Shown piece after piece: positions 1-55,409 of a DNA stretch of 64,000 bases. The notes under the pieces are model-generated. The model was not told the DNA's origin. It did not search any database and saw nothing but the letters and a program-made list of their open reading frames with translations. This stretch comes from an uncultured Phycisphaerales bacterium (GTDB taxonomy: Bacteria; Planctomycetota; Phycisphaerae; Tepidisphaerales; Tepidisphaeraceae): positions 320,001 to 384,000 of the forward strand of contig CAVWLP010000003.1 of the NCBI GenBank assembly GCA_963755915.1, read 5' to 3'. Numbering within the stretch: position 1 is the first letter of the stretch; every line of letters begins with the position of its first letter. The translations under genes and the position numbers were made by a program.

Positions 1-1427
1 GCGCAGGTCTGAAGGCTGCGGGACACGCAGATTTGCCGGTTCATGACATCGGCGTAAATCTGCATGGCGAGGGGATTGCGCGCGGAAATTCCGCCGCAAT
101 TGACGACGCGGCGCACGGGTACACCATATTCCTCCAGGCGTTCCATGATGACCCGCGATCCCATTGCCGTCGATTCGATTAAGGCTCGATAGATTTCGGC
201 TGGCGAGCTGTGCAGCGTCAGGCCCAAAATCAGTCCGCTTAAGCGCTGATCGACGAGGATCGTCCGATTGCCGTTGAACCAGTCCAAGCAGAGCAATCCG
301 CTCTCTCCCGGCCGAAGTCCCTCGGCGGCGGCCGTCAGTGCCTGGTGCGATCCTGACTCCTCACCGCCTGGCTGAATTTTGCTGACGAACCAGTTGAAAA
401 TATCCCCTACCGCTGATTGGCCGGCCTCCAAGCCAAAATAATTCGGCAGAACCGAGTCCGGCACGATGCCGCACAAACCCGGCACATCCGCGATTGCCCG
501 CGACTTCGGCGCTACCATGATATCACACGTCGAAGTCCCCATGATTTTGACCAATGTTCCGTCGGAAATTCCCGCGCCGATGGCCCCGAGGTGGGCATCG
601 AACGCCCCGATGGCGACGGGTATCCCCTCCGGAAGGTTGAGTTTTCCGGCCCACTCGGCGCTTAGCTTCCCCGCTGCATGGGCCACATTTTCGCATTTCG
701 CCGGCAGCGTCTTGCGAACGCGAACCAGCGCCGAATTCAGCATCCCCAGAAAGGCCTCGTCCGGGTATCCGCCCCACTCCGGGTTGTAAAACGCTTTGTG
801 CCCCGCCGCGCAAACACCGCGGCGAATTTCGTTCGCATCCTTCGCCCCCGTGAGCACTGCCGGAATCCAATCTGCGATTTCAATCCACGTATAAGCCGCC
901 TCAAAAACCGTCGGCTGGGTTCGCGCGCAGCGTAGGAGCTTCGCCCAGAACCATTCCGATGAATATCGCCCCCCGATCTTGCTCATGAATTTCGGGCGAT
1001 GTTTCAGCCCCAGCGCCGTGATCTCTTCCGCTTCGTCGTGAGCGGTGTGATCTTTCCAGAGCCACGCCATCGCATGGGGATTGCCGGCGAAACCCGGGAG
1101 CATCGCCAGGCTTCGCCCTTGCCGGTCCACCGGCATCGGTGTGCTGCCGGTCGTGTCGACCCCGATCCCAATCACGCTATTGGCGGAAAATTCCCCATCC
1201 GTCGCGGCGTGCTCCAGCGCCTGGGTGATTCCGCGCGAAATCGCCTCGAGGTAATCCGCTGGATTTTGGCGAGCGAGGTCGGCATCGGTATCGTCGAGCA
1301 CGACGCCGGCATCGCCGGTGGGATAATCCGCAACGAACGAGGCCAGTTCCCTGCCGTTGCGGACGTCCACGATCAGCGTCCGCATCGAGTTTGTTCCGAA
1401 GTCCAGTCCTATGACGTATCGGCCCAC
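1..1427 (-). CDS. araB: L-ribulokinase (FGGY kinase), runs off the left edge; absent from the ORF track
   Basis: Manual translation from GTG at 1427 (AAGGA upstream): MGRYVIGLDFGT..., GIGVDTTGSTP, WKDHTA, YSSEWFWAK, GAFDAHLGA, KIMGTSTCD, GLEAGQSAVGDIFNWF, LDWFNGNRT. Confidence 0.93.
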   Translation of the reverse strand, partial: MGRYVIGLDFGTNSMRTLIVDVRNGRELASFVADYPTGDAGVVLDDTDADLARQNPADYLEAISRGITQALEHAATDGEFSANSVIGIGVDTTGSTPMPVDRQGRSLAMLPGFAGNPHAMAWLWKDHTAHDEAEEITALGLKHRPKFMSKIGGRYSSEWFWAKLLRCARTQPTVFEAAYTWIEIADWIPAVLTGAKDANEIRRGVCAAGHKAFYNPEWGGYPDEAFLGMLNSALVRVRKTLPAKCENVAHAAGKLSAEWAGKLNLPEGIPVAIGAFDAHLGAIGAGISDGTLVKIMGTSTCDIMVAPKSRAIADVPGLCGIVPDSVLPNYFGLEAGQSAVGDIFNWFVSKIQPGGEESGSHQALTAAAEGLRPGESGLLCLDWFNGNRTILVDQRLSGLILGLTLHSSPAEIYRALIESTAMGSRVIMERLEEYGVPVRRVVNCGGISARNPLAMQIYADVMNRQICVSRSLQTC

Positions 1428-1602
1428 GGACAGATCCTTTCAGAGTGGCAAAAAGACCGAAATTAGTGCAACGGGATAGGATGTCAAGCCGTTGCACCCC
1501 CATTGTTTAGGGGGGCCTCTATTTTTACGGGCCAAGTTGGTTACCTTCGCTCCCCGACTGCCATATTCACAATGGCGAAGATTTGTTTCCGAGGCTCTGG
1601 CG

Positions 1603-2241
1603 ATGCAAGATGAACCCGTGGCGGTTGCGGATTTGCCAAGCCCGGCTGGCAGCGGAAACGATCAAACCGAGCTCGATGAGCGGCAGTGCCGCCAGTGCAT
1701 TGCCGGCGACAACCGGGCCTGCGGGGAGCTTCTCAAACGGTATGAGGCCCGCATCGCACGCCTGATGTGGCGATTTACCCGCAACCGGACCGAGCACGTC
1801 GAACTGGTGCAGGAAACCATGGTGCAGGTTTACACATCCCTCCCGCGATTCCGCTGGGGGAAAGCTCCGCTTGAGCATTGGGTTATGCGGATCGCCACCC
1901 GAACCGGGTATCAGTTCTGGCGTTCCCAGAAACGCCGGCGAAATTTACAGCCCATCGACGAAATCGATCCGCCCGCCCCTGCCGAAGCCGGCCAGATGGA
2001 CGCGACGGCCGCCGCGGCTGCGCTTCACAACCTGCTTGCGGAACTTCCGCGGGCCGACAGGCTCGTCCTCACCCTCATGTATTTCGAGGAGTGTTCGCTG
2101 CGCGAAATCGCCAAACGGGCCGGATGGAACGAAACCATTGTCAAAATGCGCGTCTATCGCGCCCGGCAACGGCTGAAAAAGATGATTGAAGAGAAGAAGA
2201 TGACGGAATTTCTAATGGGAATAAGCCATGGATCCGCTTGA
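1603..2241 (+). CDS. ECF-type RNA polymerase sigma-70 factor
   Basis: Region 2-like ELVQETMVQVY...LEHWVMRIA; region 4 LPRADRLVLTLMYFEECSLREIA...VKMRVYRARQRLK. Confidence 0.9.
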   Translation: MQDEPVAVADLPSPAGSGNDQTELDERQCRQCIAGDNRACGELLKRYEARIARLMWRFTRNRTEHVELVQETMVQVYTSLPRFRWGKAPLEHWVMRIATRTGYQFWRSQKRRRNLQPIDEIDPPAPAEAGQMDATAAAAALHNLLAELPRADRLVLTLMYFEECSLREIAKRAGWNETIVKMRVYRARQRLKKMIEEKKMTEFLMGISHGSA

Positions 2242-2494
2242 CGCCATCGAATCTCTGGCCCGGCTGGCCCGCTGCGAGGAGCCGCCGGGGACGAATATCA
2301 ACGTGGCCGCGGTGCTGCGCGCCGCCGCCAATGCGGAGCCACCCCTTCGCCTCGCGCCGCTGGCCTGGTCGGCCGCCGTTTCAGCGCTGGCGGCCGGAAT
2401 CATTCTCAGCTTCGCCATCCACACCCGCCAGACCACCTCCAGCATCGATTCCATCTCGCCCCTTTTCAACGCTACACAGGTGCAGTTGCCATGA
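2228..2494 (+). CDS. Small single-TM protein, putative anti-sigma factor
   Basis: 88 aa, overlaps the sigma stop, one hydrophobic segment (LAPLAWSAAVSALAAGIILSFAI); function from context only. Confidence 0.55.
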   Translation: MDPLDAIESLARLARCEEPPGTNINVAAVLRAAANAEPPLRLAPLAWSAAVSALAAGIILSFAIHTRQTTSSIDSISPLFNATQVQLP

Positions 2495-3111
2495 CCCAAA
2501 GCAACCCTCCCATCGAACAAATTCTCCCACCGAAGCGCGGCCGCTTCCGCGTCTTGAAGGCGTTGGCCCTCTCCGCGGTCATCTTCCTGGCGGGCGGCGC
2601 CGCGGGGTATGGCGTTTCATGGCTCTGGCATCCACCATTCCCCCCCCCGCCGATGGGGCGGTTTGATCCAGACCCTCCGGTGGGAAGCCTGGTTGATCGT
2701 CTGCGCATCGAGCTCTCGCTCAGCGACGATCAGGCGAAGCACGTCCGGCAGATTTACCAGGACTGCCGGGATGGACTGATGAAAATCCGGGAACAGGTTC
2801 GCCCGCAGTTCAAAGCGCAGTTCGATAAGCTCGATGCGCAGATGAAGCAGGCGCTGAATGCGGACCAGTACCAGCAGTGGAGCGAGCGTTTCCGCAATAT
2901 CCGGGACCAGATGCTCCCCCCGCCCCGCGGCGGTCCAGGAGGCCCCGGCGGTCCAGGCCCGTGGGGTGGACCAGGCGGCCCCGGTGGATTCGGCCCGCAC
3001 GGTCCCCCGCCCGGCGAGGGCGGCCAAGGACAAGGAGGACCGCCCGATAATGGGCCGCCCGGCGGACCGCCGGGAGGACCACAGGGCATGCCGCCTCCTG
3101 GCGGTGGATGA
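2491..3111 (+). CDS. Membrane-anchored periplasmic Spy/CpxP-like helical protein with Gly/Pro-rich tail
   Basis: ATGA overlap; N-terminal TM; LSLSDDQ and LNADQ (LTxxQ-like) motifs; GGP repeats at the C-terminus. Confidence 0.6.
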   Translation: MTQSNPPIEQILPPKRGRFRVLKALALSAVIFLAGGAAGYGVSWLWHPPFPPPPMGRFDPDPPVGSLVDRLRIELSLSDDQAKHVRQIYQDCRDGLMKIREQVRPQFKAQFDKLDAQMKQALNADQYQQWSERFRNIRDQMLPPPRGGPGGPGGPGPWGGPGGPGGFGPHGPPPGEGGQGQGGPPDNGPPGGPPGGPQGMPPPGGG

Positions 3112-3201
3112 GCCGCATCACCTGCGCTGCAATCTATTCGTCAAACCAAAGGAAAACCGTCAGTGCGAAAACGGATCGGAATTCCCCCCTAGGCGTGACG
3201 T

Positions 3202-9899: not shown

Positions 9900-9929
9900 T
9901 CGAATAGGGCAACATTCAGCAGAATAAGC

Positions 9930-11956: not shown

Positions 11957-12186
11957 AAGCTCCTCGACGCCACAACCCGTCGTTCCGCGTATCCGGTGAG
12001 AATTTAACCACGCATTTTTAGTAGTTCAAGACTATTGCTTGCAAATCGAAATTAATCGAGCGGCTTTCCAATCCTCGTGCTATAGAAACGACGCTTGCCC
12101 GCGAAGTCATCTGAGCGGGGTGTTTCGGTTCGGCTTAGATTTGAGCCGCTTGCCCAATGCCGGCCGCCTTCCGGCGTTGATCCTTA

Positions 12187-17590: not shown

Positions 17591-17603
17591 GGGAATACGA
17601 AAG

Positions 17604-17625
17604 GGGGCCGGGTAAAACCGGCCCC
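17604..17625 (+). terminator. Stem-loop after the PEP-CTERM gene, probable terminator
   Basis: GGGGCCGG-gtaaaa-CCGGCCCC perfect 8-bp stem 14 nt after the stop; weak U tract. Confidence 0.6.
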
Positions 17626-17769
17626 TCTGTCAAACTTTCTCGGGTTTTCTTTCGCCTGCAGACCAGTCCACGGGACGGGTCTATCAGGCGAAACCGTGGA
17701 ATGTACGCTTATGTAACCAAGGATTAGTTCTTGACTGACGCGCTTTCCGGAGATAATTGCTTCCTTTGG

Positions 17770-18915
17770 ATGGCGACCTCGTCACACCTAAGGAAGATCA
17801 ACCAGCGTAAAATCGTGCATTCGATGCTACGGCTCCAGACCAGCACGTCGCGCACGGCGCTGGCCGAGATGGCTGGAATGAGCCAGGCGACCGTCGGCCG
17901 AATCGTGGACGATTTGATCTCGCAGTCCGTACTTTCCGAGGTCGAAACCGAGGAAGGCCGGCCGCGTTCGGATTCGCGGCAACTTGGCCGCCCCTCGAAA
18001 CTTCTGGAGCTCGACAAGGTTCGGCCCCGTTTCCTGCTGATTCAGCTCGGAGTCCGTCAAACCCGCCTGGCGCTTTCCTCCGTTGCAATTCCCACAACCG
18101 ACCGCTGGTCGATTATGTTCGCAACCCCTCGGATGAAGTCCGACTGGTTTGCGAAGCTGGCCCGCGTCTGCCGGAAGATTTCACTCCGCGGGATCGACGC
18201 CATCATCATGAGCTGCCCGGGGGTGGTCGACGAATCGGAAGGCCGGATTTTGCTCTGCCCCAACATCCACTGGGCCGAGGAAGCCAATTTCGCTTCGGGG
18301 TTGCGGTCGATCGCCCGATTGCCGGTTGTGTTTATCCAGGAGATTCGCGCGCTGGCGCTGGGGCAGTTGGCGGTCGAGCCGGCGCTCAAGGATTTTCTGC
18401 TCGTCGATGTCGGAGACGGCATGGGGGGCGCTTCCATTGTCGGCTCGAAGCTGGAAACAGGGCATCTGCCGCTCAGCGGCGAGCTAGGACACACGCCCGT
18501 GCTGGGCAATACGCGCAAATGCGGGTGCGGGGCCATCGGATGCACCGAGACCCTGATTTCCCGCAAGGGGATTCTCAAGAGTTTCCGCGACAATGCCGAC
18601 ATCCGCACCTGGCCGGCGCTGATGAGCTATGTGCAGGAGGCGGGTTTGCCGGAGTGGTTCAAGGTTTCGCTGGACGCGGTGGCGATCACCGTCGCCGGCG
18701 CCTTGAACGTCGAGGGAATCGCCAACGTGATTTTCACGGGCAATCTTTCTGAATTCCCCCCGGAGGCAACCGACTATCTCTGCCAGAAGGTTCGCGAGCA
18801 CGCGATGTGGAGCCGGCTGGGGGAGGTCGGAGCGCGAATCGCGCCGCGGCACCGCATGGCGGGCATGGTCTGGGCCGGGATCGATCGCGTGCTGTTCGCC
18901 GTCATGTCCTCTTAA
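17770..18915 (+). CDS. ROK-family transcriptional regulator
   Basis: N-terminal HTH (SRTALAEMAGMSQATVGRIVDDL, GRP); GELGH...CGCGAIGCTE zinc motif. Confidence 0.92.
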   Translation: MATSSHLRKINQRKIVHSMLRLQTSTSRTALAEMAGMSQATVGRIVDDLISQSVLSEVETEEGRPRSDSRQLGRPSKLLELDKVRPRFLLIQLGVRQTRLALSSVAIPTTDRWSIMFATPRMKSDWFAKLARVCRKISLRGIDAIIMSCPGVVDESEGRILLCPNIHWAEEANFASGLRSIARLPVVFIQEIRALALGQLAVEPALKDFLLVDVGDGMGGASIVGSKLETGHLPLSGELGHTPVLGNTRKCGCGAIGCTETLISRKGILKSFRDNADIRTWPALMSYVQEAGLPEWFKVSLDAVAITVAGALNVEGIANVIFTGNLSEFPPEATDYLCQKVREHAMWSRLGEVGARIAPRHRMAGMVWAGIDRVLFAVMSS

Positions 18916-30240: not shown

Positions 30241-30383
30241 GCTCAACCCTCTTGCCGCGAATACGAACCTGGGACGTACATTGCGAACCGCGGCGGGGGC
30301 TATTTAAGCCTAAAATGGGAGCAAAAACAAGCTTTTTTTTCATCGCGAAAGTAAAGGGAATATGGTGGCAATTTGGCGGGCGA

Positions 30384-40012: not shown

Positions 40013-40025
40013 ACTTCCACCACTT

Positions 40026-40835
40026 TTAGTTTGCGTCGGCCCCCGCCGACGCACCCACAAGCTTGCCCACCGGTGCAGCAGTCTTGCGTGGCTCATGCCA
40101 GAGCCGCCAGCGAAGGCGGATCGTGTCGAGGATCATGGACCAGCCGTGCTTCACCATGCGGACCGTGGTCGGGTCTACATATTCGAAATGGATCGGCGTC
40201 TCCTTGATCGTGAGATTGGCGGCGCCGGCGTAGGCGAGGAGCTCTACGTCGAAGAAGAAGCCGTCGGTTACGATGTGTGCGCCGATTCGATCCCACGTTT
40301 TGGCGGTGAAGCCTTTCAGGCCGGCCTGGGTGTCGAGGATTTTTATGGGCAGCATCCAGCGCAGGAAGGCGTTGAAGGCGCGGCTCATGCGGTGACGCTT
40401 GTAGATGTTAGGGAAATCGAGGGGGCTGATCAGGAACCGCGAATCGGGGTGGGCGCGGTTGACGACGACCATGTCGGCCCCTTCGCGCAATTTCGCCAGG
40501 ACCTTGACCGCTTCCTCGGGGGCATACGCCAGATCGGCATCGGTGAAGATCCGATACGGCGTCTGCGCCCGCCACATGCCGTTCTTCACCGCGAATCCCT
40601 TGCCGCGGTTCTTGGTATAGCTCTGCACCGTCATCCGCGGCTCATTGCGCGTAAGCATCTCGAGCTTCGCCGAGGTATCGTCCGTGCACCCGTCGCAGAC
40701 GAACAGAACGCAGAATTCGGGATTCACCGCAAGAAAGGCGCTGAGCCTTTCCACCGATTTGGCGATGAACGCCGACGCGTTATAGGTCGGAATGACCAGT
40801 GTGCAGATAGGATTGGTCCCAATTTGAGCATTCAT
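40026..40835 (-). CDS. GT2 polyprenyl-phosphate sugar synthase (dolichyl-P glucosyl/mannosyltransferase-like)
   Basis: LVIPTYN, CDGCTDDT, NRGKGFAV, FTDADL, DTQAGLKGF, GFFFDVELL. Confidence 0.88.
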   Translation of the reverse strand: MNAQIGTNPICTLVIPTYNASAFIAKSVERLSAFLAVNPEFCVLFVCDGCTDDTSAKLEMLTRNEPRMTVQSYTKNRGKGFAVKNGMWRAQTPYRIFTDADLAYAPEEAVKVLAKLREGADMVVVNRAHPDSRFLISPLDFPNIYKRHRMSRAFNAFLRWMLPIKILDTQAGLKGFTAKTWDRIGAHIVTDGFFFDVELLAYAGAANLTIKETPIHFEYVDPTTVRMVKHGWSMILDTIRLRWRLWHEPRKTAAPVGKLVGASAGADAN

Positions 40836-40897
40836 ATTTCTCCCGGTCCGTTTTTAGTTCTTGCCAGTTTGTTATCGGTCCAAGCGCATAAATCCTG

Positions 40898-42535
40898 TTA
40901 AAACCTGTAAGTGAGCCCCGCGGAGAGCCCGTTGCCGGAATAGGGCACAGACGATCCGGGGAGGTAGTAGTACGTATACGACACCGACAGTTGGAGACGA
41001 TTCCCAATGTGCAGCGTGGGCCCGATCGACAGCTCCACGCCGAAGTCGGCGGGGCTCAGGATGTACAGGGGATAGACATACATCGGTAGCGTAAGCCCGG
41101 GCACGATCTGCGGCTCGGCACGCAAAATCGGACCGACGGTTTGGAAATCCGCCCGGCTGCTGTAGGCGGTGTTTTGCCCATACTGGGTCATTTCGTAAGC
41201 GCCGCCGAGGCGGATATTCCAGGTGTAATTGAGGACGTAATAGGGTTCGACGTGGAGGAACTGGCGGCTATTGCCGTCGTTGTATTCGGCGTAGGTGTAG
41301 ACGACGTTGGCGGCGATGTAATCGGTGAACTGGTAGCCACCACTGACGCCGGCGACGTCCTGCGAGAGGTCGTTGGCGACTGTGTACATCGTGTCGTTAA
41401 CCGGGTCGTTGAGGCGATACGTTCCGTCGAGCCAGAGCTTATCGGTGGGCTTCCAGGTAGCGCCGACGTTGAAGCCGGTGACTTGACGCCCGGGCTGCTG
41501 GAAGGCGTCAACGCCGCCGCGGAAATTCCATTCGCTGTTGACGTGATATTCGAGGCCTAGGTCCTCCTGGTAGCGGATCACGGGGCCAAAGCTCATCTTG
41601 TTGTTGGCGAAGTAATTGTTGTTGTATTCCGCGTCGATGGCGATGTGATCCGACACCGGAACGGTCAGGGTATTGAACCATCCCATCTGGTGGAACCCAT
41701 CGCTGCCGAAGAAGAGGTAATAGTCGCTGGAAAACTGCACGGCCGTATTGGTTTCGATATTCGAAAGCCCTGTCTTGGCCGTTTCGAATGTCGGGTCAAA
41801 CTCCATCGCCTTGGCGTATTCCTGCCGAGCTTCGGACAGATCCCAGTTGTTCCGGTGAATATCCCCCAGCAGGCCCAGGGCATCGACCGACTTGGGATTC
41901 TTGGCCAGCACCGCCTTGGCAATCTTTTCCGCCTCCGCATCGCGCCCATGGGCGTGCAGGAATTTGGCGTGGGCCAGGAGGATCCATTCCTCATCGACGG
42001 CATTGCGATCAGCCGCTTCGTAGGCTTTTTCGGCGTCCGCGGTCCGGCCCGCGTGATCCAGCGCGGCGCCGAGCTGCGCATAGGTTTCCGCGTCGTTAGG
42101 GTCGTGTCGAATGACTTCGTTGAGAACGTCTATTTCGCGATCGGTCATCCCGGCCGCATCCGCGGCCTTGGCGAGCTCCAGGCCCCAGCTGGTGTCGTTG
42201 GGATCCTGGATGTAGGCCGTGTCGAGATGCACGTAGGCTTTTTGGGGATCGTTCAGTTTGTCCAGATAGATCCAGCCGAGGGTTCGCCGCAGGATGATTT
42301 CATCCGGGCGCGCCGCCAGGGCCTTTTCCATCGCGTCGGCGGCGGCCTGGTAGTCGGCCTTGGTTTTCGTCTGCTCCGCGCGGCTTTCCAGCTCCCACGC
42401 GGAATCCATCAGCGCGTCGGTCTGCTGCTTGGTAAGCGACGGAGTCGTCTGCGCACCCGCGCGGCCGCAAAGCATGGCCAGGGTCGCCAGCGCCAACAGG
42501 ATTCTTGCCGGAGATTTTGGAGAGATGGTTTTCAT
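40898..42535 (-). CDS. TPR-containing outer-membrane beta-barrel protein, putative polysaccharide exporter
   Basis: Signal peptide; about 7 TPR-like repeats; aromatic alternating C-terminal half ending AGLTYRF. Confidence 0.7.
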   Translation of the reverse strand: MKTISPKSPARILLALATLAMLCGRAGAQTTPSLTKQQTDALMDSAWELESRAEQTKTKADYQAAADAMEKALAARPDEIILRRTLGWIYLDKLNDPQKAYVHLDTAYIQDPNDTSWGLELAKAADAAGMTDREIDVLNEVIRHDPNDAETYAQLGAALDHAGRTADAEKAYEAADRNAVDEEWILLAHAKFLHAHGRDAEAEKIAKAVLAKNPKSVDALGLLGDIHRNNWDLSEARQEYAKAMEFDPTFETAKTGLSNIETNTAVQFSSDYYLFFGSDGFHQMGWFNTLTVPVSDHIAIDAEYNNNYFANNKMSFGPVIRYQEDLGLEYHVNSEWNFRGGVDAFQQPGRQVTGFNVGATWKPTDKLWLDGTYRLNDPVNDTMYTVANDLSQDVAGVSGGYQFTDYIAANVVYTYAEYNDGNSRQFLHVEPYYVLNYTWNIRLGGAYEMTQYGQNTAYSSRADFQTVGPILRAEPQIVPGLTLPMYVYPLYILSPADFGVELSIGPTLHIGNRLQLSVSYTYYYLPGSSVPYSGNGLSAGLTYRF

Positions 42536-42536
42536 G

Positions 42537-45500
42537 TTATTGATGGAACTCTCTTGAAAACTCATTTATCGACAAGAACTGCGGTGCGCCGTTTTCAGAG
42601 TCGTGAACGAATATTGGGACGTTGGCCTCATCGATCCCCCTGGTGGCGATAACCTTCAATTGCACCCTGTACCAGCCTGGAACGTCGGGCAGCTCGATCG
42701 CCGCCATCTGGCCGCCCTGCATCGGAGTGATCGTTCCCGCGTCCGGCTTGAAATTCGGACCTGTCACGCTCCAGCGATACTCCACATGATCCAATGGCAA
42801 CGATCGCACGTTCGCCTTGACCACAAACGGCTCACCGGGCCACTGCGCATCGGTCGGATAATTGATTTCCAGGATCTCCGGGCCGGGATTAGTGAAGGCT
42901 CCAAACAGCTTCGGATTCGGATTATGCCAGGCGTCGCGCATCGCGGCGCACACCGGTTTTTCGCGGCCGTCGAGGTCCACCATTCCGAACCAGGTGGCGG
43001 TTCCTTCGTAACGATCGCTCCAGCAATAGGCGATGCCGCCCACGTTGCTCCCCTTATTCGCCTGGATATCCTCGCGCCACCGATCCGCGTAATACCAGCC
43101 CTTCACCGCCGCCGTCGGTTCCAGCAGCCCCTTCTGGCTGTCGTAATGATTGCGGTCGTTGTTCCAGTACCCATCCGGACCAAATTCGCTCACCAGATAC
43201 GGCCGCCCCGGATCGAAGCGGGCGAAAAGCTCGTGAAGGTGCCCAATGTCAGGCTGGTAATACGCATTCACCGCAACCGCATCGAGCGTCGGCGCCCCAA
43301 CCGCGTAGTCGGCAATCGCCCCACCAACCTGGTCAGCCTCCTGCGCGGAGAAGATCGGATGATTAGGATCGAGCTGCCGAATAACCTGCGCCATCCGCTC
43401 CACGAAAAGCACGTGGGCATGCCGAACTTCCGTCAAATACGGCTGCGAATACTTGTGCTTCAGCAGCCCCCAAACTTCGTTGCCCAGGCACCACCCCAGC
43501 AGCCCCGGATGATCGTGATAAGCGAGAACCGTCGATTCAATTTGCGCCTGATATTCCTGCTGTTTGGCCGCATCCGCCAGGTAATTCTCGTCCTGCATGA
43601 ACCAGAACCCGTACATCACCTTGAGATGATTTTCCTGTGCCGCGTTGAGGATATTGCGGTCCGACCAGGTCCGCCCATACCGGCGGATGGTGTTGCCTCC
43701 CATTTCGTGAATGATCGAAAAATCGCGACTAAGCTGGGCCGAGCTCAACGGCACGTTGGCGTCGCGCCAATCCTGCCCCGGATTGTAAGCAATTCCCTTG
43801 ACGTAGAACGGCCTTCCATCCACTAACAGCGAGAAATGCCCCGGCGAACCGCTGATGCAGCGCGACTGATGATGCTGGGGATGCAAATCAAACCACAGCG
43901 GCAACGATTGCGCTGCGCGTGGCCGGCGCTGAAAGGCTGAAGATTCAGCGTCCGCTTTGTTTCCGACAACCAGGACGAATCGTCGGTCGGCGGCGCAATC
44001 GCATTGTTGTCGTCGAGAACGACGCTCTTGATCTCCGGATAGCGCACGCTGATGTCGGAAAGAGCATCACGCTCCCAATTGGCCCCCAGCTCATTGTTGG
44101 CCGCATTCAGCCCGGTAATCATGATCGGTCGGTGCCACTGGGCAATGCGCGGATGGAAGGCGTCATACTGCTCGGCAAAAGATTTCCTCGGCGAAGCCGG
44201 ATCCTGGGCGATCGGCAGGGCGATCCAGTCGATGAATCCCGCCTGCTCCGGAAAATACGTCGCCGCGGTCTTGGGCGAAGCCGGAGACCAGACCCACCCA
44301 ATATTAGCCGCACCTTCCGTTTGGAGCGTCAGCACCAGGTGCTGCCAGGCGGCGATAAAATCCGCCGGTTTGTTGCCGGTACGGGCAGACCACGGCATTG
44401 CCGCGTTGTCCGGCTGCGGAGCGAAGGAGATAAGAATCGGTTCACCAAACGCCCGCGCCGAGGCCGCAAACTGGTGAATGTACGCGTCATAATTCCCCGC
44501 CCCGATGCGCTGGAGAATCGGATGCCTCTGCCACGAATGCATTGCAGTTCCATCGACGGGCAGCCAATTCAGCATCGGGATCGCCCCGCCGCGGCGGAGC
44601 TCCTTAAGCTGGTCGACCGGCAAATCCGCGCCCCAGGGCAAATCAACGGCCACGATCCGGAACTGGATATCAAACTGCAACTGGAGATTGGCCGTGCTCG
44701 GCAGCCAGGCCTCTTTGCCCGCGCTCAGGTGTACGCCCGTGTAAAAGCCTCCGGTATCCGGCACCAGCGTGTCGTCGAACGCATTTTCCAGACCGTTCCC
44801 CTGCGACGGAACGAGGTTGATGAAATAAATCGCCAATGTTGCCGTCGCGATTCCCAGCGGAAGCAGCCGTCCCTCGCGGAACTGCCGCAGCATCGCCCGA
44901 TACGCCATTCCCGCGCCGCGCCGAACGCTCCGGGCGATCTGGATGACGAATCGCAGCCGCTGAAGCTGCCGGCGAAGTTTCAGCAGCGTTACCTGCTGCG
45001 AAGTGACGGAAATATGTAAAAGCGAAATCGAGTTGAGCACCGCCAAAACCGCCATGAGCAGTGCCGGCGGAGAGCTGTCGTAATAAACCCCGAAGCATGC
45101 CGCGAGGATAAGAACGCCGGCCGCGACGAAGTTGGGCAGCGTGATCCTGCCCGCGTTGGAAGGTTCATCTTCCTTCGGCGTCGGGATATACGGAACCTTG
45201 ATCCGAAACACCGCGCAGAAAACGCCCGCCAGATAAATCCACCAGGTCGCGATCGCCAGCGACCCGCCGGCGATATGCATCCCGCGCTCCTGCGGCTCCA
45301 TGAGCCACCGCTGCACGCGCAGCCGCACCAGCGTCGCGAAAACCAGCATCGGCGCGAACCAGAGCACCAGTTCCGTCGCCGTCGCCCGCCAGGCGATCAG
45401 CCCCACGGTGAGCGTGGCGATCGGCACCAGCATTTCCAGAAGCGTCACCACGCCGCGAAGAAAGAAAATCGGGCACAGCAGGTAGTGAATGCGCTGCCGC

Positions 45501-46558
45501 CAGGTAAAGCCGCTGTAAAGTTTTGGATATTCCTGGAAGAGCAAATCGAACACGCCGCACGCCCATTTGATCTGCTGCTTGTAAAACGCCGCCAGCGTCG
45601 AGGGAACCAGTCCGCGGGTGAGAATCTCCGGCACGTAAACCGAGTGCCACCCCTTCGAATAGAGCCGCATCGACGTGTGCATGTCCTCGGCGAGTCCCGG
45701 CGCGTGCCCGCCGATGCTGTCCAGCGCCGTCCGGCGAAAGACGCAGTTTGCGCCGATGGCCTGTGTCGTGCCGCACCCGTTCATCCCCATCATGTAGGGG
45801 CCGTAAAAGTGATACGACTGCTCCGCCGCGCCTCGCGCCACGATCGAATCCGACTGATTCCGATACGCCTGCACCGACTGCACAAACCCAACGGATGGAT
45901 CCTCGAAATATCCCAGCGTCCGCTCCAGCAAATAGGGCGAAGGCTCATGATCTGGATCCAGAACGACGGCGATTTCCCCCGTCGCCTGCCGAAGCGCATT
46001 ATTGATGTTCCCCGCCTTGGCGTTCTTCTTGACGGTGCGCGTCACGTGAACAACGCCCAGCTCCTCGCAGATCGCCTTGAGAATCGGGTCGTTGCCTTCG
46101 TCGCAAAGGTAATTGGTATGCGGATACGGGATCGCCACCATCGCCTTGAGCGTCCGCACGATCATCCCGCGCGGCTCACCCGGGCAGGCGGTCGTCAGGA
46201 TATCGACGGACCATTTCCGCCGCGCCTTCAATACGCGGGGAATCGAAATGTGAAAATAGTTGTACCATTCAAACAGCCAGCAGGCGGCGCGAAGCCCCAG
46301 CGCCAGCGTGAGCCCCAGATAAACGATCGGATCGCCGATCCGGCCCGGACTCAGCAGCCAGGCCATCAGCGAAATCAGCGAACCCGCGGCCAGCAGGATC
46401 AGCACCCGAAGCTTGAGCAGCTCCCGCCGCGGCAGAATCGTCGCGCGGACCGGATGCGCCGGCCACTTGTAGGGCGGCCAGCATTCGACGGCATCAAGTG
46501 CCGAAGCCGGCGACTCCGCCGACTCTGCGTCGACAATCTGGGTGTCCAAGAGACTCAT
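42537..46558 (-). CDS. Processive GT2 polysaccharide synthase fused to a GH26-like domain and a clan GH-A (GH2/GH158-like) domain; probable frameshift near 43910
   Basis: CDEG, AKAGNIN, DPDH, AED, QQIKW, YIPTPK; GNYDAYI...WVWSP; GNTIRRY, LGNEV, SEFGP. The two ORFs overlap and the second lacks a signal peptide. Confidence 0.8.
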
Positions 46559-46691
46559 GCTTCTCCCATACTCCTCGGGCGATCTTAAGGTCGCCTTCGA
46601 TTGTGCTGTCCAACCCCGGTGCCTTCCGGCACTTATTCGATCGGTTTAATTCACGGATGGATTCAACGCCCGATCCGTAAAGCTGTTCCGT

Positions 46692-48179
46692 TTATGACGG
46701 CGAAAGCCCGAATTCGTTGATGTCTCGATAGACCTGTTGCGGCACAGCCTTCGGTTGCACCGGCGCCGCCGCCCCCAGGAAATATTTCCGATACCGCGCC
46801 TTCGGCAGCGCGTTCACGATAGCCACCATTTGCTTCGCCCCATGGGCCTTCAGCAGCTCCCGGCACTGCCCCGCCGCAGCCAGAGACGCCCGCCGCGCGT
46901 TCATCACCAGCAGCGTCGCCCGGCATCGCGCCGCCAGCGCCAGCGTGTCTGGATTCCCCAGCGCCGGACCCGCGTCGAACATCACGAACCGATACGATCC
47001 CGTCAGTTGCCGGATCACGTCCGACAAAGCGCTGCCCTGAAGCTTCGCCGCCGAAACCGACGACGGCTTTCCGCACGGCAGCAGGTGCAAATTCTGAATG
47101 TGCGTCGGCCGGATGAAATCCGACGCCACCAGCGGATTGTCCAGCCCGTCATAAAAGCCCGGCGAAGGATTATTGTCCCCGAAAATCTTGTGAAGGATCG
47201 GCGAGCGAAAATTCACGTCGATCAGCAAAACGCTTTCCCCCGCCATCGCGATCGTCGTTGCCAGGTTCACCGCGACGGTAGAAGTCCCCTCCCCACGCGA
47301 TGGAGAAGTCACCAGCAGCGAACCCGCCTGCCGGCTCACGTTCGCCCCGAACAGATTCAGCAGCAACGACCGGCACAAAAGCGCCCCTTCGGATGCCGGA
47401 TCGATATAAGCGGCCAGACCCCGCCCCGCCGTCGAGCTTTCTGGAAGAATCGGCAGATGCCCCGCCGTCTGCAATCCCGTCCGCTCAAAAATCTGCGCCG
47501 GTGTGCGTATCCGATCGTGCGAAGAGCCCGCAATCAGTTCGATCAATATCCCCAGAATCACGCCCGCCGCCGCTGCAATTCCCAGCATCTCCCCAAACGA
47601 CGGATTCTCCGGCTGAACGTCCCCGCTGGCCAGCGTGCAATCCGCAACGGCCTTGGGATCGATCAGCAACATACTCATCCCCGTCAACGGATCATTCCTC
47701 GTCGCCGACGCCAGTGACGCCAGCACCGCGTTGATAATCTTCGCCGCCTGGTGCGGATAGGGCGTATGGGCCACGATCTTCAGTTGATCGTCCTGCGTGA
47801 CTGTTTGAATCGTCAGCATGCGCCTCAGCGATTCGACCGTGTTGGACCCCAGTCCCAGAATCGCGAGCTGCGAAAGATCGAGCCGCCGCCCCGCCGCGGC
47901 CAGGACTGCATCAGACCGCGCCGCATCGGCAAGCTGGTCCAGATATTCCGCTGCCGCAACGCCCGATTCCACGTTCTGATCCGTCTGCGAAATGTTCGCA
48001 AACGACAAAACTCCCTGCACCTGGTAGGAGGGCTGGGATGCGTTCATATACGCCAGCATCCCCACCACTGAAATCAGCGTGGTAAAGAGGATACCGAAGC
48101 GTCCGTGAACCACTGCACTCACTAAACGGGATGTCCACGAAGCGCCGCGCGGTGCGCTAGTCTGTCTGCTACCAATCAT
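46692..48179 (-). CDS. Wzc/CapAB-like polysaccharide co-polymerase with degenerate BY-kinase domain
   Basis: TM-periplasmic-TM then VTSPSRGEGTST, LLIDVNFR, NLHLLPCG, MFDAGP. Confidence 0.82.
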   Translation of the reverse strand: MIGSRQTSAPRGASWTSRLVSAVVHGRFGILFTTLISVVGMLAYMNASQPSYQVQGVLSFANISQTDQNVESGVAAAEYLDQLADAARSDAVLAAAGRRLDLSQLAILGLGSNTVESLRRMLTIQTVTQDDQLKIVAHTPYPHQAAKIINAVLASLASATRNDPLTGMSMLLIDPKAVADCTLASGDVQPENPSFGEMLGIAAAAGVILGILIELIAGSSHDRIRTPAQIFERTGLQTAGHLPILPESSTAGRGLAAYIDPASEGALLCRSLLLNLFGANVSRQAGSLLVTSPSRGEGTSTVAVNLATTIAMAGESVLLIDVNFRSPILHKIFGDNNPSPGFYDGLDNPLVASDFIRPTHIQNLHLLPCGKPSSVSAAKLQGSALSDVIRQLTGSYRFVMFDAGPALGNPDTLALAARCRATLLVMNARRASLAAAGQCRELLKAHGAKQMVAIVNALPKARYRKYFLGAAAPVQPKAVPQQVYRDINEFGLSPS

Positions 48180-48481
48180 AAGTGCCCTTCAATACGGAGA
48201 TGCCCGAATAATCGGTTGTTGCGACCGGAATATAAACGCGCCAAACCCGACCGACCAATGAATCCGACCGATGTGAAGCCCTTGCGACCCCCCCAAATGA
48301 AAAACTCGGAAATCTGTAACGAGGACGCCAGCAAAGAGCCGAAACGAAAGACCCGATAATCCGCCTGGTCCGATAATTCGGCGCGGCCCAACACAGGCAT
48401 TATCGCCCCCAGACCCAAATAATGTTTTTGCCTTGGCCCCAAATTAGGGCGATATTCTCTCGTAATCTCACTGGAGTGTTA

Positions 48482-49671
48482 GTGAACCTCTCGATGCGGG
48501 GATTCCGCGAATATCTGCTGCTGATCGTCTCGATGCTCGCCCTCTTCTGCGCTGCCCACAATCGTGCGCCGCCGATGGTCTGATCGTCGGCGCCGATGTT
48601 TCCGACTGCGCCTATTTCCAGGGTCTTGGCGCTAAATATATGGATCACAGCCAGCCCGCGGACATCTTCTCCATCCTCAAAACCCACCACATCAATCTCG
48701 TCCGCCTCCGCCTCTTCACCAGCACCAATCAGCAGGCGCAGCAGGCCCCCTATGACAGCATCAACAACATGCTCTACACGCTCCCGCTCGCGGTTCATGC
48801 CGCCCAGGCCGGCTTGCCCTGGATGCTCGACTTCCACTACTCCGATCTCTGGGCTGATGCCAACCACCAGCTCAAACCCGCCGCCTGGAAAGGCCTCACC
48901 TTCTTCCAGCTCGAACAACGCATGTACGAATACAACCGCGATTGCATCCGCACCTTCCGCGAAGCCGGCGCAATGCCCCAATACGTCCAGATCGGCAATG
49001 AAATCACCTCCGGCCTCGTCTGGCCCGACGCCGAAACCGACACCCCGGGCCACTGGAAACGCCTCGGCAGACTCCTTAACGCCGCCATCCGCGGCATCCA
49101 CGACGGCGCCGGCTCACAAAAACCCAAAATCGTCATCCACATCGGCAGCGGCGATCAGTGGGACGTCATCCGCGCCTTTTTCGACCGCCTTCGCGATCAG
49201 CAGGTGGACTTCGACGTGATCGGCCTAAGCTATTTCCCCGACGCCACCAGCAAAATCGAAGATCTTCAATCAGCCATGGCCGGCGCGACAGCACGATATG
49301 CCCGCCCGGTCATGATCGCTGAAACCGCCTTTCCCTGGTCCCAGAATTCCGCCGATGCCGACGCCGGTGAACCCATCCTTGGCCTGACGCCCGGCGCTCA
49401 CGGACAAGCGCAATACGCCGCGATGCTTTGCCAGGCAATGGCAAGTGTCCCCAACCAAATGGGCATCGGAATCGTCTGGTGGGGCGCCGAATATGAAAAC
49501 ATAGGCCGTCTCGATTTGAACGGCTACGACTGCAGCTCACTCTTCGACGGCTCCGGGAATGTTCTCCCCGTGATCGACGTCCTCGGCCGCTTTGCGATAA
49601 AAGGAAACTCGCTCGCCAACAATGCCGTAACCCAAAGTCTGCAAGCATCCGCCAAACATCTCGCTCAATAG
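48482..49671 (+). CDS. GH53 endo-beta-1,4-galactanase, frameshift near 48570
   Basis: Signal peptide; GADVS, VRLRLF, LDFHYSDLWAD, VQIGNEIT, DFDVIGLSY, IAETA. Confidence 0.9.
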
Positions 49672-50355
49672 CCGCCCCTGCTCAGGCGTCAAATCGCGCC
49701 TCCACCGTCCGGGTTGCGCACTCCCAATATGATTATCGTGAAGCAACGTCACGCGATCGCGCCGGTGATTATCGATGCCCACGTCAACCTGCTCCGCCGG
49801 ACGCGAAGCAAGCTGCCCGCAAATCTTCCGGCTGAATTCGATATTCGTCTGCCCATCGATCCACTCGACTATTTTCTGATCGACCGGAACCTCCAGATGC
49901 TCTGCAATCTTTGCAATTTCCCGTGGCGGATCTTTAACCATCTCTTCGTACCGAACAAACAGAGTGCGCTGCGAATCCTGGTAAGACCTCAGCAGGCAAT
50001 CAAAGCTATGCGCCATGCGCCGCACCGAAGCCTCAAACCCGCCGGCCCAGAACACCAGATCGGAAGCCACGCAATCCCGCGGATCGCGATAGGTGCACAC
50101 CGCTTTCACGCGCCCGCTACGAATCGACTGAAGCGCAAAGGGCCCAAGCTCATGCACCTTGATAACCGCCGACCCCGAGCCGAGCGTTGCCTCCATCTGC
50201 AGAAACCGATCCAGCGAATTTTCCCCCAGGCACGCCATCCCGAACGGCTCCCCGCGCCGCTTCGCGCGGATTTGCCCCAGCAAACGGCAGACGTTGTACG
50301 ACCAGGTTGACCCCGAGCGGATAACGCCGTCACAAATAAAAATGGGCGATATCAT
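49537..50355 (-). CDS. Sulfotransferase-domain protein
   Basis: GVIRSGSTW (5'-PSB), IKVH, YRDPRDCVAS (3'-PB), VRYEEM, GRWRRDLT. Confidence 0.8.
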   Translation of the reverse strand: MISPIFICDGVIRSGSTWSYNVCRLLGQIRAKRRGEPFGMACLGENSLDRFLQMEATLGSGSAVIKVHELGPFALQSIRSGRVKAVCTYRDPRDCVASDLVFWAGGFEASVRRMAHSFDCLLRSYQDSQRTLFVRYEEMVKDPPREIAKIAEHLEVPVDQKIVEWIDGQTNIEFSRKICGQLASRPAEQVDVGIDNHRRDRVTLLHDNHIGSAQPGRWRRDLTPEQGRLLSEMFGGCLQTLGYGIVGERVSFYRKAAEDVDHGENIPGAVEE

Positions 50356-50627
50356 CGAACAAATTCGATTCGCTTGCGCGGTTGTCTTCACTTGGGAAGT
50401 CTGCGTCGCCCCCCAGGACGAAAAATCCAGACTAGTCCGCGACGACTTAAGCGAACATGAAGAAAATCCCCAAAATGCAGAACCCGACTCGATTACTCAG
50501 ATTTCCTGTTGAGCCGCCACCCCCAGGGAGAGTGCTTTCCCGAGCCCTTCCCAACCCGCGATCCCACCGACTCCCCCCGGATACTCCAAGCCAAGAATCC
50601 CACTTTGGCACGCATCTTGCGCTTTGC

Positions 50628-53135: not shown

Positions 53136-55409
53136 TCACTCCCCCCATCCCGCCCACGCCGTCCGCAACACCGCTTCGACGTTCCGCGCAAACCGTTTCG
53201 CATCGCACAGCGGCGACGCCACCATCCGCGCCCGCAGATTTCTCCGCACCTCCGCAAGCCGCGGCAAATCCCCCGCCGTCTTCACCGCGATCTCCACAAA
53301 TTCCTCCTCCGTTCCCGCCGCCAATTCCCCCATCCCCAGATTGCTCAACTGGCTAAACCCCGCCCGCCCCACCGTGGTCTTCCCAACCAGCGTCACAATC
53401 GGCACCCCCATCCACAGCGACTCCAATCCCGTCGAGTGGCTGTTATACGGAAACGTGTCCAGCCCAAGATCGATCCGGCCAAACAGCCGCAAATACTCCG
53501 CCCTCGCCCGTCTCCCCGCAAACTCAATCCGCGACCCTTCAACCCCCCACTCCGCGAATCTTCCCAGGATTCTTTCCCGTACCTCCCCTTGAAGCGCCAA
53601 CATCAACAGCCGCGAATTCGGCACCCGCCCCAAAACCTTCCCCCACAGCTCCAGCGCCTGCTCGTTCATTTTGAACGGCACATTCAGACTCCCAAACGTC
53701 ACATACCCCGCCCGCAACGCCGGCAATTCGTTCACCTCATACCCGTGCGCCACCTCCATTGCCTCCGGATCAAAACACCAGAAACTATCCGCCACCCGCA
53801 GCACCCGCTCTGAACCACCCTTCTCTTCTCTTTCCCCCGGATCCAAATATGGATCGCTGATCCGGTAATCGATCGTCTTCAATCCCGTCCCCCCCGGGTA
53901 CCCCGCAAAGGTCATCTGCACTGGCGCCGGCTTACGTGCAAAGACCAGCAGCCGATGGTTAACCGTATGCAGCGCCAGATCGATCAGAACATCAATCCGA
54001 TCCTCCCGAATCCGCTGCGCCGCCGCCGCATCGCTCATCTCCCCGATCTCAACCCAATGCTCCGCATACGATTTAAATTTCTCCGTCATCACCCCCGGCC
54101 CCGCATGGTTCGAGTAACAAAAAACTTCGAATTCCCCACGATCATGCTCACGGATCAGCGGCAGCACGTTTCGCCCCACAACATGGGCACTAAAATCCGC
54201 CGAAACATACCCGATCCTCAGCCGCCGATTCGCGTCTCGATTGTTGACATGCGGAACGATCGCCGATCGCAGCGGCTGCGCATATCGCTCGTCCCAATCC
54301 GACTCCAGCCGCCGAATCGAATCGGCATCCATACCCGGATGATAAAAAGAGGTAAGAATCAAGCTGCTGCCAATGTACGGATCTTTCGGGTCAAGCTCCT
54401 GAGCCCGCGAAAACGCCGCCATCGCCTGATCAAATTCTCCCAAATCGCGCAACGCCAGCCCCAGCCCATGATGATTATTCGCGGATCCGGGCGCCAGCGC
54501 GACGGCCTTCCGACACGCCTCCACCGCCTCGTCACACCGGTCCAGCGTCGACAGAATTCTCCCCAGCGTCGCCAGCAGATCGGCATCGTCAGGCTGAATC
54601 TCGACCGCCTTCTGCAATTGTTCCAGCGCCTCTTCCCGCTTCCCCTCTTCAAGCAGCAGCCCGCCCAGATGCCCGCGGGCGACGGCCGAATTCGGCTCCA
54701 TCGCCACCACCTTCCTGAACTGCTCAATCGCTTCCCCTCTTTGTCCCGCCTTCGCAAGCGCCCCACCCAGGTTCATCAAAATCACCGGCGACTGAAGATT
54801 GGCCGATGCCTTACGATACGCCGCGATTGCCCCCTCCCGATTCCCCAGTTTCAACAGCACGCTTCCATAGTTCGTGAGAATCTCCGCCGACTCCGGCAAC
54901 TGCGCCACCGCCTTTTCGTAAATCGCCCGCGCCCCTTCGAGATCCCCCTTCTGAACCCGGAGCTGGGCCAAACCAATCCACGCATCCCGCCGCCGCGGCT
55001 GGACCTTCAGCGATTTCTCATATTCCGCCGCCGCTTCCTCCCCGCGCCCGATCTGCGAAAGCAGCGTCGCCGCCCCCAGATATGCATCACTATCCTCAGG
55101 CCGAAGCCGCGCCGCCGCGCGATACGAATCGACCGCTTCCTGCGTCTTTCCCGACGCCGCAAGCACTCGCGCGAGGTTCTTATGAAAGTCCGGCACGTCC
55201 GGCGCAAAAACGATCGCCCGCCGGATCAGTTGTTCCGCCGACGCGTTGTCCCCGCGCTGATGGAAAACCAATCCCAGCAGGTGCAGAACCACGGGATCAC
55301 CCGGCCGCTGCGCGAGGATATCGCGGTAAATCCGCTCCGCTTCGGCAAGCTGTCCCCCCTGATGCAGCTTTACTGCGCCGGCAAGCCTCGGATCGGCGGC
55401 GGGGATCAT
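53136..55409 (-). CDS. TPR-containing O-GlcNAc transferase-like protein (GT41/SPINDLY family)
   Basis: About 10 TPRs; RLRIGYVSADF, DVLIDLALHT, KPAPVQ, GYPGGTG, LDTFPYN, LWMGVP. Confidence 0.92.
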   Translation of the reverse strand: MIPAADPRLAGAVKLHQGGQLAEAERIYRDILAQRPGDPVVLHLLGLVFHQRGDNASAEQLIRRAIVFAPDVPDFHKNLARVLAASGKTQEAVDSYRAAARLRPEDSDAYLGAATLLSQIGRGEEAAAEYEKSLKVQPRRRDAWIGLAQLRVQKGDLEGARAIYEKAVAQLPESAEILTNYGSVLLKLGNREGAIAAYRKASANLQSPVILMNLGGALAKAGQRGEAIEQFRKVVAMEPNSAVARGHLGGLLLEEGKREEALEQLQKAVEIQPDDADLLATLGRILSTLDRCDEAVEACRKAVALAPGSANNHHGLGLALRDLGEFDQAMAAFSRAQELDPKDPYIGSSLILTSFYHPGMDADSIRRLESDWDERYAQPLRSAIVPHVNNRDANRRLRIGYVSADFSAHVVGRNVLPLIREHDRGEFEVFCYSNHAGPGVMTEKFKSYAEHWVEIGEMSDAAAAQRIREDRIDVLIDLALHTVNHRLLVFARKPAPVQMTFAGYPGGTGLKTIDYRISDPYLDPGEREEKGGSERVLRVADSFWCFDPEAMEVAHGYEVNELPALRAGYVTFGSLNVPFKMNEQALELWGKVLGRVPNSRLLMLALQGEVRERILGRFAEWGVEGSRIEFAGRRARAEYLRLFGRIDLGLDTFPYNSHSTGLESLWMGVPIVTLVGKTTVGRAGFSQLSNLGMGELAAGTEEEFVEIAVKTAGDLPRLAEVRRNLRARMVASPLCDAKRFARNVEAVLRTAWAGWGE

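Follow-up and report, generated by a model that had tools for sequence, protein, structure and literature searches.

What does a bacterium gain from a polysaccharide synthase that carries two glycoside hydrolase barrels, one of them apparently dead? The question is raised by a gene of about 1340 codons at 42537..46558 (minus strand) of the window analysed here, a stretch of 64,000 nucleotides of contig CAVWLP010000003.1 (positions 320,001 to 384,000, assembly GCA_963755915.1) from an uncultured Phycisphaerales bacterium, a planctomycete of soil. The window shows the gene as two overlapping open reading frames (ORFs) that result from a one-nucleotide gap. An initial annotation, made from the letters of the window, had described it as a glycosyltransferase family 2 (GT2) synthase fused to an apparently dead GH26 (glycoside hydrolase family 26) domain and an apparently live clan-A hydrolase. 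The reading that we favour, with moderate confidence, is that one gene encodes a BcsA-like synthase with a periplasmic GH158 trimming enzyme and a dead GH26 glycan module, and that it serves the export of a beta-glucan containing beta-1,3 linkages.

The synthase gene and its three domains

The two ORFs, at 43823..46558 (911 amino acids) and 42537..43904 (455 amino acids), both lie on the minus strand and overlap by 82 nucleotides in different frames, and the frame of the 455-residue ORF is free of stop codons for a considerable distance before its first start. The gap that splits the gene lies at 43912..43913 (minus strand), as placed by a read-derived contig (X1), by the DNA alignment with the related locus L002 and by the junction in the L002 protein, P0003. 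X1 covers window positions 43491-43934 and is identical to the window except for one extra base behind 43912. This base restores the frame, leading from coding-strand frame 1, which ends in GHAQ, to frame 2, which begins with AQSLPLW, as in P0003. L002 also has one extra base at 43912/43913. The indel is informed by run X1 only, the contigs of runs X2, X3 and X4 not covering 43912. The 11 runs found include none listed as RNA. The gap near 43910 is real in the window sequence and is contradicted by the read contig.

Homologues give the same picture. The junction is continuous in six of them (P0003, P0004, P0005, P0006, P0007 and the ORF of locus L001), and complete uninterrupted versions have 1346 (P0004), 1333 (P0005), 1356 (P0006) and 1349 (L001) amino acids; a 1368-residue open frame in L016 holds the GH26-like and GH158 matches in a single frame. 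P0003 (90% identical) is unbroken at the junction and is shortened later by a frameshift of its own, a one-nucleotide gap at window position 43300. Both L001 and L002 are from metagenome-assembled genomes (MAGs) of uncultured Phycisphaerales. Between the window and L002 the ratio of nonsynonymous to synonymous substitution rates (dN/dS) is 0.023 for the GT2 domain, 0.095 for the GH26-like domain and, in the GH158 domain, 0.03 before and 0.07 after the frameshift of L002, all of this downstream of the shift in the window. The corresponding values between the window and L001 are 0.16, 0.26 and 0.16.

The gap in the window sequence could be a real frameshift of this strain, with the gene split or decaying into a GT2-GH26-like product that ends in 29 out-of-frame residues and a GH158 fragment devoid of an export signal. 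L002 is likewise frameshifted in its GH158 part, at a different place, and a second GH158-like gene of the genome is also read in two frames. However, the frame is restored in the X1 contig, intact in L001 and shared by both hydrolase-type matches in L016, and the low dN/dS in the GH158 domain extends past both shifts. Moreover, window positions 40021-50375 align with L002 positions 6188-16509 at 91% DNA identity, and 17 of the 21 gaps in these 10.4 kb are single-base gaps scattered through coding regions of both assemblies, so that consensus errors fit better than biology. Single-base gaps also occur inside conserved genes, namely in a neighbouring porin gene (window positions 42308 and 41101) and in the N-terminal part of the synthase gene (46441 and 46454), and the ORF lengths of flanking genes differ between the window and L002 (495 versus 560 and 555 versus 445 amino acids). 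Both assemblies appear indel-prone. We regard a real frameshift as improbable and are confident that the split is a consensus error in a single gene, which agrees with the fusion described in the initial annotation; this confidence stops short of certainty because a single shallow contig covers the indel site.

The N-terminal part of the protein (residues 40-590; 44789..46441, minus strand) is a BcsA-like processive GT2 domain with transmembrane (TM) helices, identified by Pfam, phmmer and Foldseek. It matches PF13641 (3.5e-25) and PF13632 (1.3e-23), as well as PF00535 and PF03552, and in phmmer comparisons it matches the BcsA structures 4hg6 and 5ej1 at about 2e-40. In the phmmer alignment D201xD203 (45950-45958), E291-D292 (45683-45688) and Q328-Q-I-K331-W332 (45563-45577, all minus strand) pair with the DAD, (T)ED and QxxRW motifs of BcsA, Lys taking the place of the Arg of QxxRW. 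These residues are invariant across a 34-sequence family alignment, and the motifs are thus as intact as had been stated. An AlphaFold2 (AF2) model of 882 residues (pLDDT 85.9, pTM 0.73) retrieves in Foldseek, as its eight top matches, BcsA chains from E. coli and R. sphaeroides with 500-580 aligned columns. Assignment to BcsA proper was considered and rejected based on scores far below the family cut-offs (TIGR03030, 179 bits versus 699; NF008558, 145 versus 992).

A Pfam scan of the synthase found no PilZ family at E ≤ 0.1. The absence of a PilZ RxxxR motif after the TM helices, as first claimed, therefore holds for a PilZ family or barrel but not for the bare string, which occurs twice (RQLQR at 530-534 and RAMLR at 554-558) in an Arg-rich segment of predicted cytosolic helices; a binding domain for c-di-GMP is not recognisable there. 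In the AF2 model two TM helices precede the GT domain, which is followed by the interface helix that carries QQIKW. Next come a pair of TM helices, another interface helix, a further pair of TM helices, two basic helices at 520-565 and a last TM helix at 566-582 (44813..44863, minus strand), the ninth in the AF2 helix list. Residues 520-565 contain 12 Lys or Arg and one Asp or Glu, and the linker at 583-602 contains no Lys or Arg and four Asp or Glu. Based on the analogy with BcsA and on the positive-inside rule, the ninth helix would put both hydrolase-type domains on the periplasmic side of the membrane, close to where the channel opens.

Residues 603-882 (43913..44752, minus strand) form a GH26-fold pseudo-hydrolase, identified by phmmer, by AF2 and Foldseek and by the family alignment. 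Pfam gives no match for this region at E ≤ 10, and PF02156 gives none at E ≤ 0.001. Among sequences in the PDB, phmmer finds the lichenase CtLic26A (2bv9, 2v3g, 2cip and others) at 9e-7. The AF2 model of the domain, built with 46 aligned sequences, has a mean pLDDT of 89.6. In a Foldseek search of the PDB, CtLic26A chains take the first seven places (E 2.5e-17, TM-scores 0.78-0.82), followed by other GH26 structures. Pfam GH26 is matched at E ≤ 0.001 by 39 of the 46 aligned relatives but not by the window domain itself.

The catalytic columns account for the initial description of this domain as dead. E109 of CtLic26A (HEANG) aligns to Q715 (44414-44416) in FAPQPD, the acid/base column at the end of strand 4, and E222 (IIAEF) aligns to G816 (44111-44113, both minus strand) in IMITGL, the nucleophile column at the end of strand 7; both glutamates are lost, as had been suspected. 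Of the CtLic26A structures, 2cip, titled a Michaelis complex, has Gln at the nucleophile column. Glutamate occupies both columns (E/E) in 108 of 201 related domains, and 42 positions are shared by at least 70% of these 108. The window domain keeps 32 of the 42, including all eight conserved Trp, and its non-conservative losses are R711S, H714P, E715Q, G771E and E816G. Judged by these alignments, the middle domain is truly homologous to GH26, with its catalytic centre lost and the rest kept, and it is under purifying selection (omega about 0.1). Of the two findings that would have overturned the initial annotation, Glu at both GH26 catalytic positions and separate genes in reads or homologues, neither was obtained.

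Catalysis through other residues, as a hydrolase or a lyase, would be a different explanation of this conservation. The clade conserves an Asp two residues past the position of the missing acid/base Glu (QPD), and three relatives (P0006, L016 and L017) have Asp at the nucleophile column. However, live relatives have the Asp at +2 as well (HE[MFP]DNP), so that it is ancestral and no substitute for a lost catalytic residue. Across the clade the nucleophile column varies between G, D and A and the acid/base column between Q and R, even among close relatives, and the adjacent His and the Arg of strand beta-4 are lost as well. We consider residual catalysis of this kind very improbable.

The C-terminal domain (42537..43911, minus strand) is of GH158 type, an (alpha/beta)8 barrel with a C-terminal immunoglobulin (Ig)-like part. 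The 455-residue ORF matches the GH158 structures 9oro (5.7e-26) and 6pal (5.2e-19). The glutamates of its GNE and SEFGP motifs, E143 (acid/base, 43476-43478) and E240 (nucleophile, 43185-43187, both minus strand, numbered in the 455-residue ORF), align to positions 135 and 221 of the 9oro chain, which are Glu143 and Glu229 after a numbering offset of eight residues. In the available text of the study of GH158(Pro), Glu143 is the acid/base and Glu229 the nucleophile of an enzyme composed of a barrel and an Ig-like domain (PMC13195107). According to the same text, the substrates of GH158 enzymes are beta-1,3 and mixed-linkage glucans, and the bond that spans subsites -2 and -1 has to be beta-1,3. 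The GH158-like character of the last domain, which the initial annotation had suggested besides noting its two retained motifs, is thus borne out, and from its residues the domain looks catalytically live. A second, free-standing GH158-like gene with 33% identity occurs in the same genome (G000:C2:4331897-4332669; L010 and L011). It is read in two overlapping frames (L010 ORFs 1270..2247 and 1902..3131), reflecting either a further consensus indel or a pseudogene.

Pfam reports for the same 455-residue ORF two other clan-A barrel families, GH72 at 32.5 bits (cut-off 25.9) and GH2_C at 25 bits. The first of these, a family of glucanosyltransferases matched above its cut-off, raises the prospect that the GH158 domain is mainly a transglycosylase that branches, cyclises or remodels a beta-1,3 chain instead of trimming it. 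A precedent is provided by Glt1, Glt3 and Glt7, NdvB-type proteins of Proteobacteria in which a GH17 transglycosylase domain is joined to GT2, as given in the part of PMC11005184 that is available. GH158 is, moreover, a retaining clan-A family for which a covalent intermediate has been observed, and yet the published members found are hydrolases (both according to the available text of PMC13195107). The GH72 match is limited to the first half of the barrel (residues 28-163), and the outer-membrane porin encoded beside the synthase favours a linear exported polymer over a periplasmic cyclic glucan. We regard the transglycosylase role as unlikely, and a trimming hydrolase remains our preferred reading of the GH158 domain.

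The export system and its polymer

The synthase gene lies between two genes that suggest what the protein works with. Upstream (46692..48179, minus strand; Pfam AAA_31 and CBP_BcsQ) is a gene for a 495-residue protein resembling polysaccharide co-polymerases (PCP) and tyrosine autokinases. Besides two TM segments and a periplasmic region, this protein has a P-loop domain at its C-terminus. The NCBIfam matches to TIGR03018 (3.7e-27) and TIGR01007 (2e-23) are both below cut-off, and BcsQ is matched only at 3e-4. The Walker A motif reads GEGTST, with no Lys; the form GEG[T/R]ST is found in the window, in L001 (8173-9672) and in L002 (8383-10065), versus the usual GEGKST. This autokinase-like partner is probably a pseudokinase co-polymerase. 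Downstream (40898..42565, minus strand; Pfam TPR and OMP_b-brl) is a gene for a 555-residue protein with a signal peptide, tetratricopeptide repeats (TPR) and a C-terminal outer-membrane beta-barrel; it has weak NCBIfam matches to BcsC and PgaA and is smaller than those. The core of three genes (PCP-like, synthase, porin) is conserved in L001 and L002, and the further neighbours differ. With an inner-membrane synthase and a TPR/beta-barrel outer-membrane protein in one operon, the locus has the layout of synthase-dependent exopolysaccharide secretion systems.

In the mechanism that we propose, the BcsA-like GT2 synthase would make the polymer in the inner membrane and pass the chain through its own channel, and the ninth TM helix would hold the pair of fused clan-A barrels on the periplasmic face, next to where the chain emerges. 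Together with the PCP/tyrosine-kinase-like protein that has no Walker A Lys and with the TPR/beta-barrel porin, the synthase would constitute a synthase-dependent export system. The GH158 domain would act as the periplasmic glycanase, a counterpart of BcsZ, PslG or PgaB, and the GH26-like domain may have been retained to bind or scaffold the nascent chain. The polymer would be a beta-glucan with 1,3 linkages, either of mixed linkage or curdlan-like. The presence of beta-1,3 linkages in the product, which the initial annotation had raised, is a reasonable expectation because of the GH158 domain and the lichenase-type ancestor of the GH26-like domain. That the polymer is a beta-glucan at all we hold to be only slightly better than an even proposition, mainly because of the ApsS/ApsE pair, which cautions that a combination of GT2 and GH26 does not always yield a glucan.

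This pair is encoded in an operon of Sinorhizobium meliloti (uxs1-uxe-apsS-apsH1-apsE-apsH2) in which ApsS is a GT2 protein and ApsE a GH26 protein, and which the available part of PMC7902896 ties to an arabinose-containing polysaccharide (APS). The ApsE sequence matches the middle-domain profile (hhalign 95%, E 2.8e-8), and ApsS is as close to the window GT2 domain as BcsA is (27% identity over 387 residues, E 2e-33). GH26 also includes mannanases and beta-1,3-xylanases, and a sulfotransferase gene and more GT genes lie near the operon. The product might accordingly be a polymer other than a beta-1,3-containing glucan, for example an APS-like heteropolymer, the clan-A domains differing in specificity from their nearest characterised relatives. 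Several observations argue in the other direction. The GH158 match is strong and both of its catalytic Glu are kept, in a family whose published enzymes, in the text available for PMC13195107, act on beta-1,3 or mixed-linkage glucans. The live GH26 domain of a relative, P0026, fits the lichenase (2.7e-33) far better than it fits mannanases or xylanases. No UDP-xylose synthase or epimerase (uxs/uxe) was found among the ten neighbouring ORFs scanned, and the ApsS motif is QEFQW versus QQxKW in the family of the window protein. We consider a non-glucan polymer possible but distinctly less probable than a beta-glucan.

Several points weigh against the beta-glucan export system that we prefer. The GT2 domain is 27-31% identical to any named synthase, and a tblastn search of plasmids with this domain found only the same 27-31% identity, to rhizobial bcsA-like genes; the domain is therefore uninformative on linkage type. 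The genetically characterised GT2 and GH26 pair, ApsS/ApsE, goes with a polysaccharide that contains arabinose and is not a glucan. The sole contig over the indel site has a depth of 3.84, stops 22 nucleotides past the site and may share its sample with the window. Because only 81% of the genome is present, a BcsB gene may have been missed. In addition, two or three members of the family (P0064, P0099 and perhaps P0103) have no catalytic residues in either domain, and a hydrolase is therefore not always required. A tblastn search of plasmids with the GH26-like domain gave seven weak matches, none of them in Sinorhizobium.

The initial annotation had assigned the GH26-like domain a BcsB-like role, guiding the polymer. 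This is consistent with our results because the domain follows the extra TM helix on the predicted periplasmic side, because its fold and aromatic residues are retained under purifying selection, and because no BcsB was found: PF03170 matches nothing in the genome (81% complete), the control search having given matches in both E. coli and B. subtilis, and the BcsB family is absent from the scanned operon ORFs of the window, L001 and L002. A bolder version of the idea would make the system a distinct class of secretion machine, in which the two synthase-fused barrels replace BcsB as the periplasmic conduit and a planctomycete combination of GH26 lectin plus GH158 trimmer works with a pseudokinase co-polymerase on a mixed-linkage or beta-1,3 glucan. 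The structural role would then be primary, and lineages could therefore lose the GH26 residues, the GH158 residues or both sets and yet keep the domains. We advance this conduit only tentatively; if true, it would imply a bacterial mixed-linkage or beta-1,3 glucan so far undescribed in Planctomycetota.

Around the three-gene core, a small GT2 glycosyltransferase gene follows the porin gene (40026..40835, minus strand, 269 amino acids; Pfam and NCBIfam), and its place in the operon is uncertain; it is absent from this place in L001. In L001, genes for Acyl_transf_3 and YdjC-like proteins (15581-17888) follow the porin gene, which is not so at this place in the window; this arrangement hints at O-acylation of the polymer of that relative. 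Upstream of the operon are the sulfotransferase gene (PF00685, 8.5e-15) at 49537-50391 and a gene for a 757-residue TPR and GT41 protein at 53136-55409 (both minus strand), the latter syntenic in L002. A 1601-residue ORF lies at 25441-30246 (minus strand).

Distribution of the family and its catalytic states

At E ≤ 0.001 the middle-domain profile retrieves 5621 proteins from a set of 1.84 billion cluster representatives. Among the 157 family proteins collected, 43 have the same QQxKW GT2 domain and 52 have a GH158-like domain. We tallied by hand the catalytic states of the 26 proteins that have a GT2 domain and more than 1200 residues; in the class of 1230-1290 residues the nucleophile region did not align, and GH158 was scored there on the acid/base column only. 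Seven of the 26 combine a non-E/E GH26 domain with an E/E GH158 domain (P0004, P0005, P0006, P0011, P0018, P0049 and P0135), and four are E/E in both (P0023, P0026, P0043 and P0055). The largest group (11 proteins) has the reverse combination, with an E/E GH26 domain and a GH158 domain whose acid/base Glu is lost, mostly to D, N, S, P, A or T; in P0027 the two sites are Q and A. Neither domain has an intact pair in three proteins (P0064, P0099 and P0103), and one (P0050) was left without an assigned state.

In a tree based on the GT2 domain only, the window protein forms one clade with P0004, P0005, P0006 and P0011, all of them non-E/E in GH26 (Shimodaira–Hasegawa-like approximate likelihood ratio test, 100%). 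Closest to this clade are, among others, P0026 and P0023, which are both live, P0026 being the nearest relative with both domains live (GH158 match 9e-28). Five changes of state are needed over the tree, and its well-supported branches force at least three. The three-part architecture is widespread in metagenomes, and its lineages differ in whether the GH26 domain, the GH158 domain or both have lost their catalytic residues. Both the spread and the alternating loss are points additional to the initial annotation.

Ten proteins of 1350-1563 residues (P0014, P0022, P0024, P0031, P0033, P0037, P0040, P0062, P0078 and P0081) have three tandem GH26-like domains. Typically one of these is E/E and the others D/D, D/G, D/S, N/G and the like, a series of pseudo-hydrolase domains. 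A cluster of about 934 residues in the ESM Atlas, commonest in Bacillota, joins GT2 to Pfam Cellulase (GH5), and synthase-hydrolase fusions therefore exist with other GH families.

Within the order, a search of 140 other genomes, all from one family, gave six matches at E ≤ 1e-20, three of them among the 12 genomes of the genus of the window. Five of the six are three-part genes, and in each of these GH26 is non-E/E and GH158 is E/E. Sampling 400 other genomes across the phylum gave four with weak matches, none in a long fused frame. Because few genomes carry the gene, it is an accessory trait with a patchy distribution. A scan of JGI metagenome contigs with the family alignment found no member, and a scan with P0005 found one partial contig (L003), which was not used further. 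The ESM Atlas holds generic 'glycosyltransferase' clusters of 1255-1323 residues with almost no taxonomy. Family genes are annotated only as 'cellulose synthase' or 'glycosyltransferase', and the cluster names of ten representatives are uninformative.

To our knowledge, a periplasmic glycanase is required in all synthase-dependent polysaccharide systems that have been studied well, for reasons that are debated. We find the alternation, by lineage, of the fused hydrolase that stays catalytic to be the most interesting property of the family. Synthase-fused glycanases with repeated natural losses of catalytic residues offer a comparative system in which a catalytic role can be separated from a structural one. 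The family also points to an unexplored route of beta-glucan production among uncultured bacteria, soil Planctomycetota included. As to annotation, the locus illustrates that single-base gaps in MAGs of few contigs artificially split such genes, and that the labels in use are too generic.

Comparison with known systems

We regard the feature as a new variation on synthase-dependent secretion. Published work on its family was not found: no paper describing a GT2-GH26-GH158 protein was found in the literature, and the GH158 similarity network of PMC13195107 may hold synthase-fused members. Among the closest systems is Bcs (BcsA-BcsB-BcsZ-BcsC), whose processive GT2 with its membrane channel is the top match both in sequence and in fold, and which shares the TPR and beta-barrel outer-membrane partner and the presence of a periplasmic glycanase. 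The window system differs from it in having QxxKW instead of QxxRW, two TM helices instead of four before the GT domain, and neither PilZ nor BcsB detected. Its glycanase belongs to GH158 and not to GH8 and is fused to the synthase through the ninth TM helix, with a dead GH26 barrel between the two, and its ATPase-like partner resembles PCP and bacterial tyrosine (BY) kinases and is not BcsQ proper. Two further reports, of bcsAB fusions (PMC9693552) and of a GH26 gene in a Wzx/Wzy cluster (PMC13390465), have in their available parts no bearing on this case.

The S. meliloti pair ApsS/ApsE is similar in that a GT2 protein is paired with a GH26 protein of the same EMD-type subfamily. In contrast to the window gene, the two are encoded separately, ApsE keeps both Glu, there is no GH158, and the GT2 motif is QEFQW; uxs and uxe are not found beside the window gene. 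The NdvB-type proteins Glt1, Glt3 and Glt7, compared by description, share with the window protein a GT2 domain and a clan-A domain active on beta-1,3-glucan in one polypeptide. The order is reversed, with GH17 N-terminal and GT2 C-terminal, and GH17 stands in place of GH26 and GH158. NdvB makes cyclic periplasmic glucans. The window synthase gene has a porin gene after it.

Of the individual enzymes, CtLic26A (Clostridium thermocellum CelH; 2bv9, 2cip and 2v3g) is the best match of the middle domain in sequence (9e-7) and in fold (TM-score about 0.8), whereas identity is only 18-19% and the window protein replaces both catalytic Glu and the preceding His. The C-terminal domain shares with GH158(Pro) (9oro) and 6pal both catalytic Glu, the Trp after the nucleophile motif and the C-terminal Ig-like part. 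The window protein has Glu at the position of R104 of GH158(Pro) and Phe at that of Tyr291, the latter as in 6pal. GH158(Pro) and 6pal are secreted catabolic enzymes or enzymes encoded in polysaccharide utilization loci, whereas in the window the GH158 domain is the C-terminal domain of a membrane synthase.

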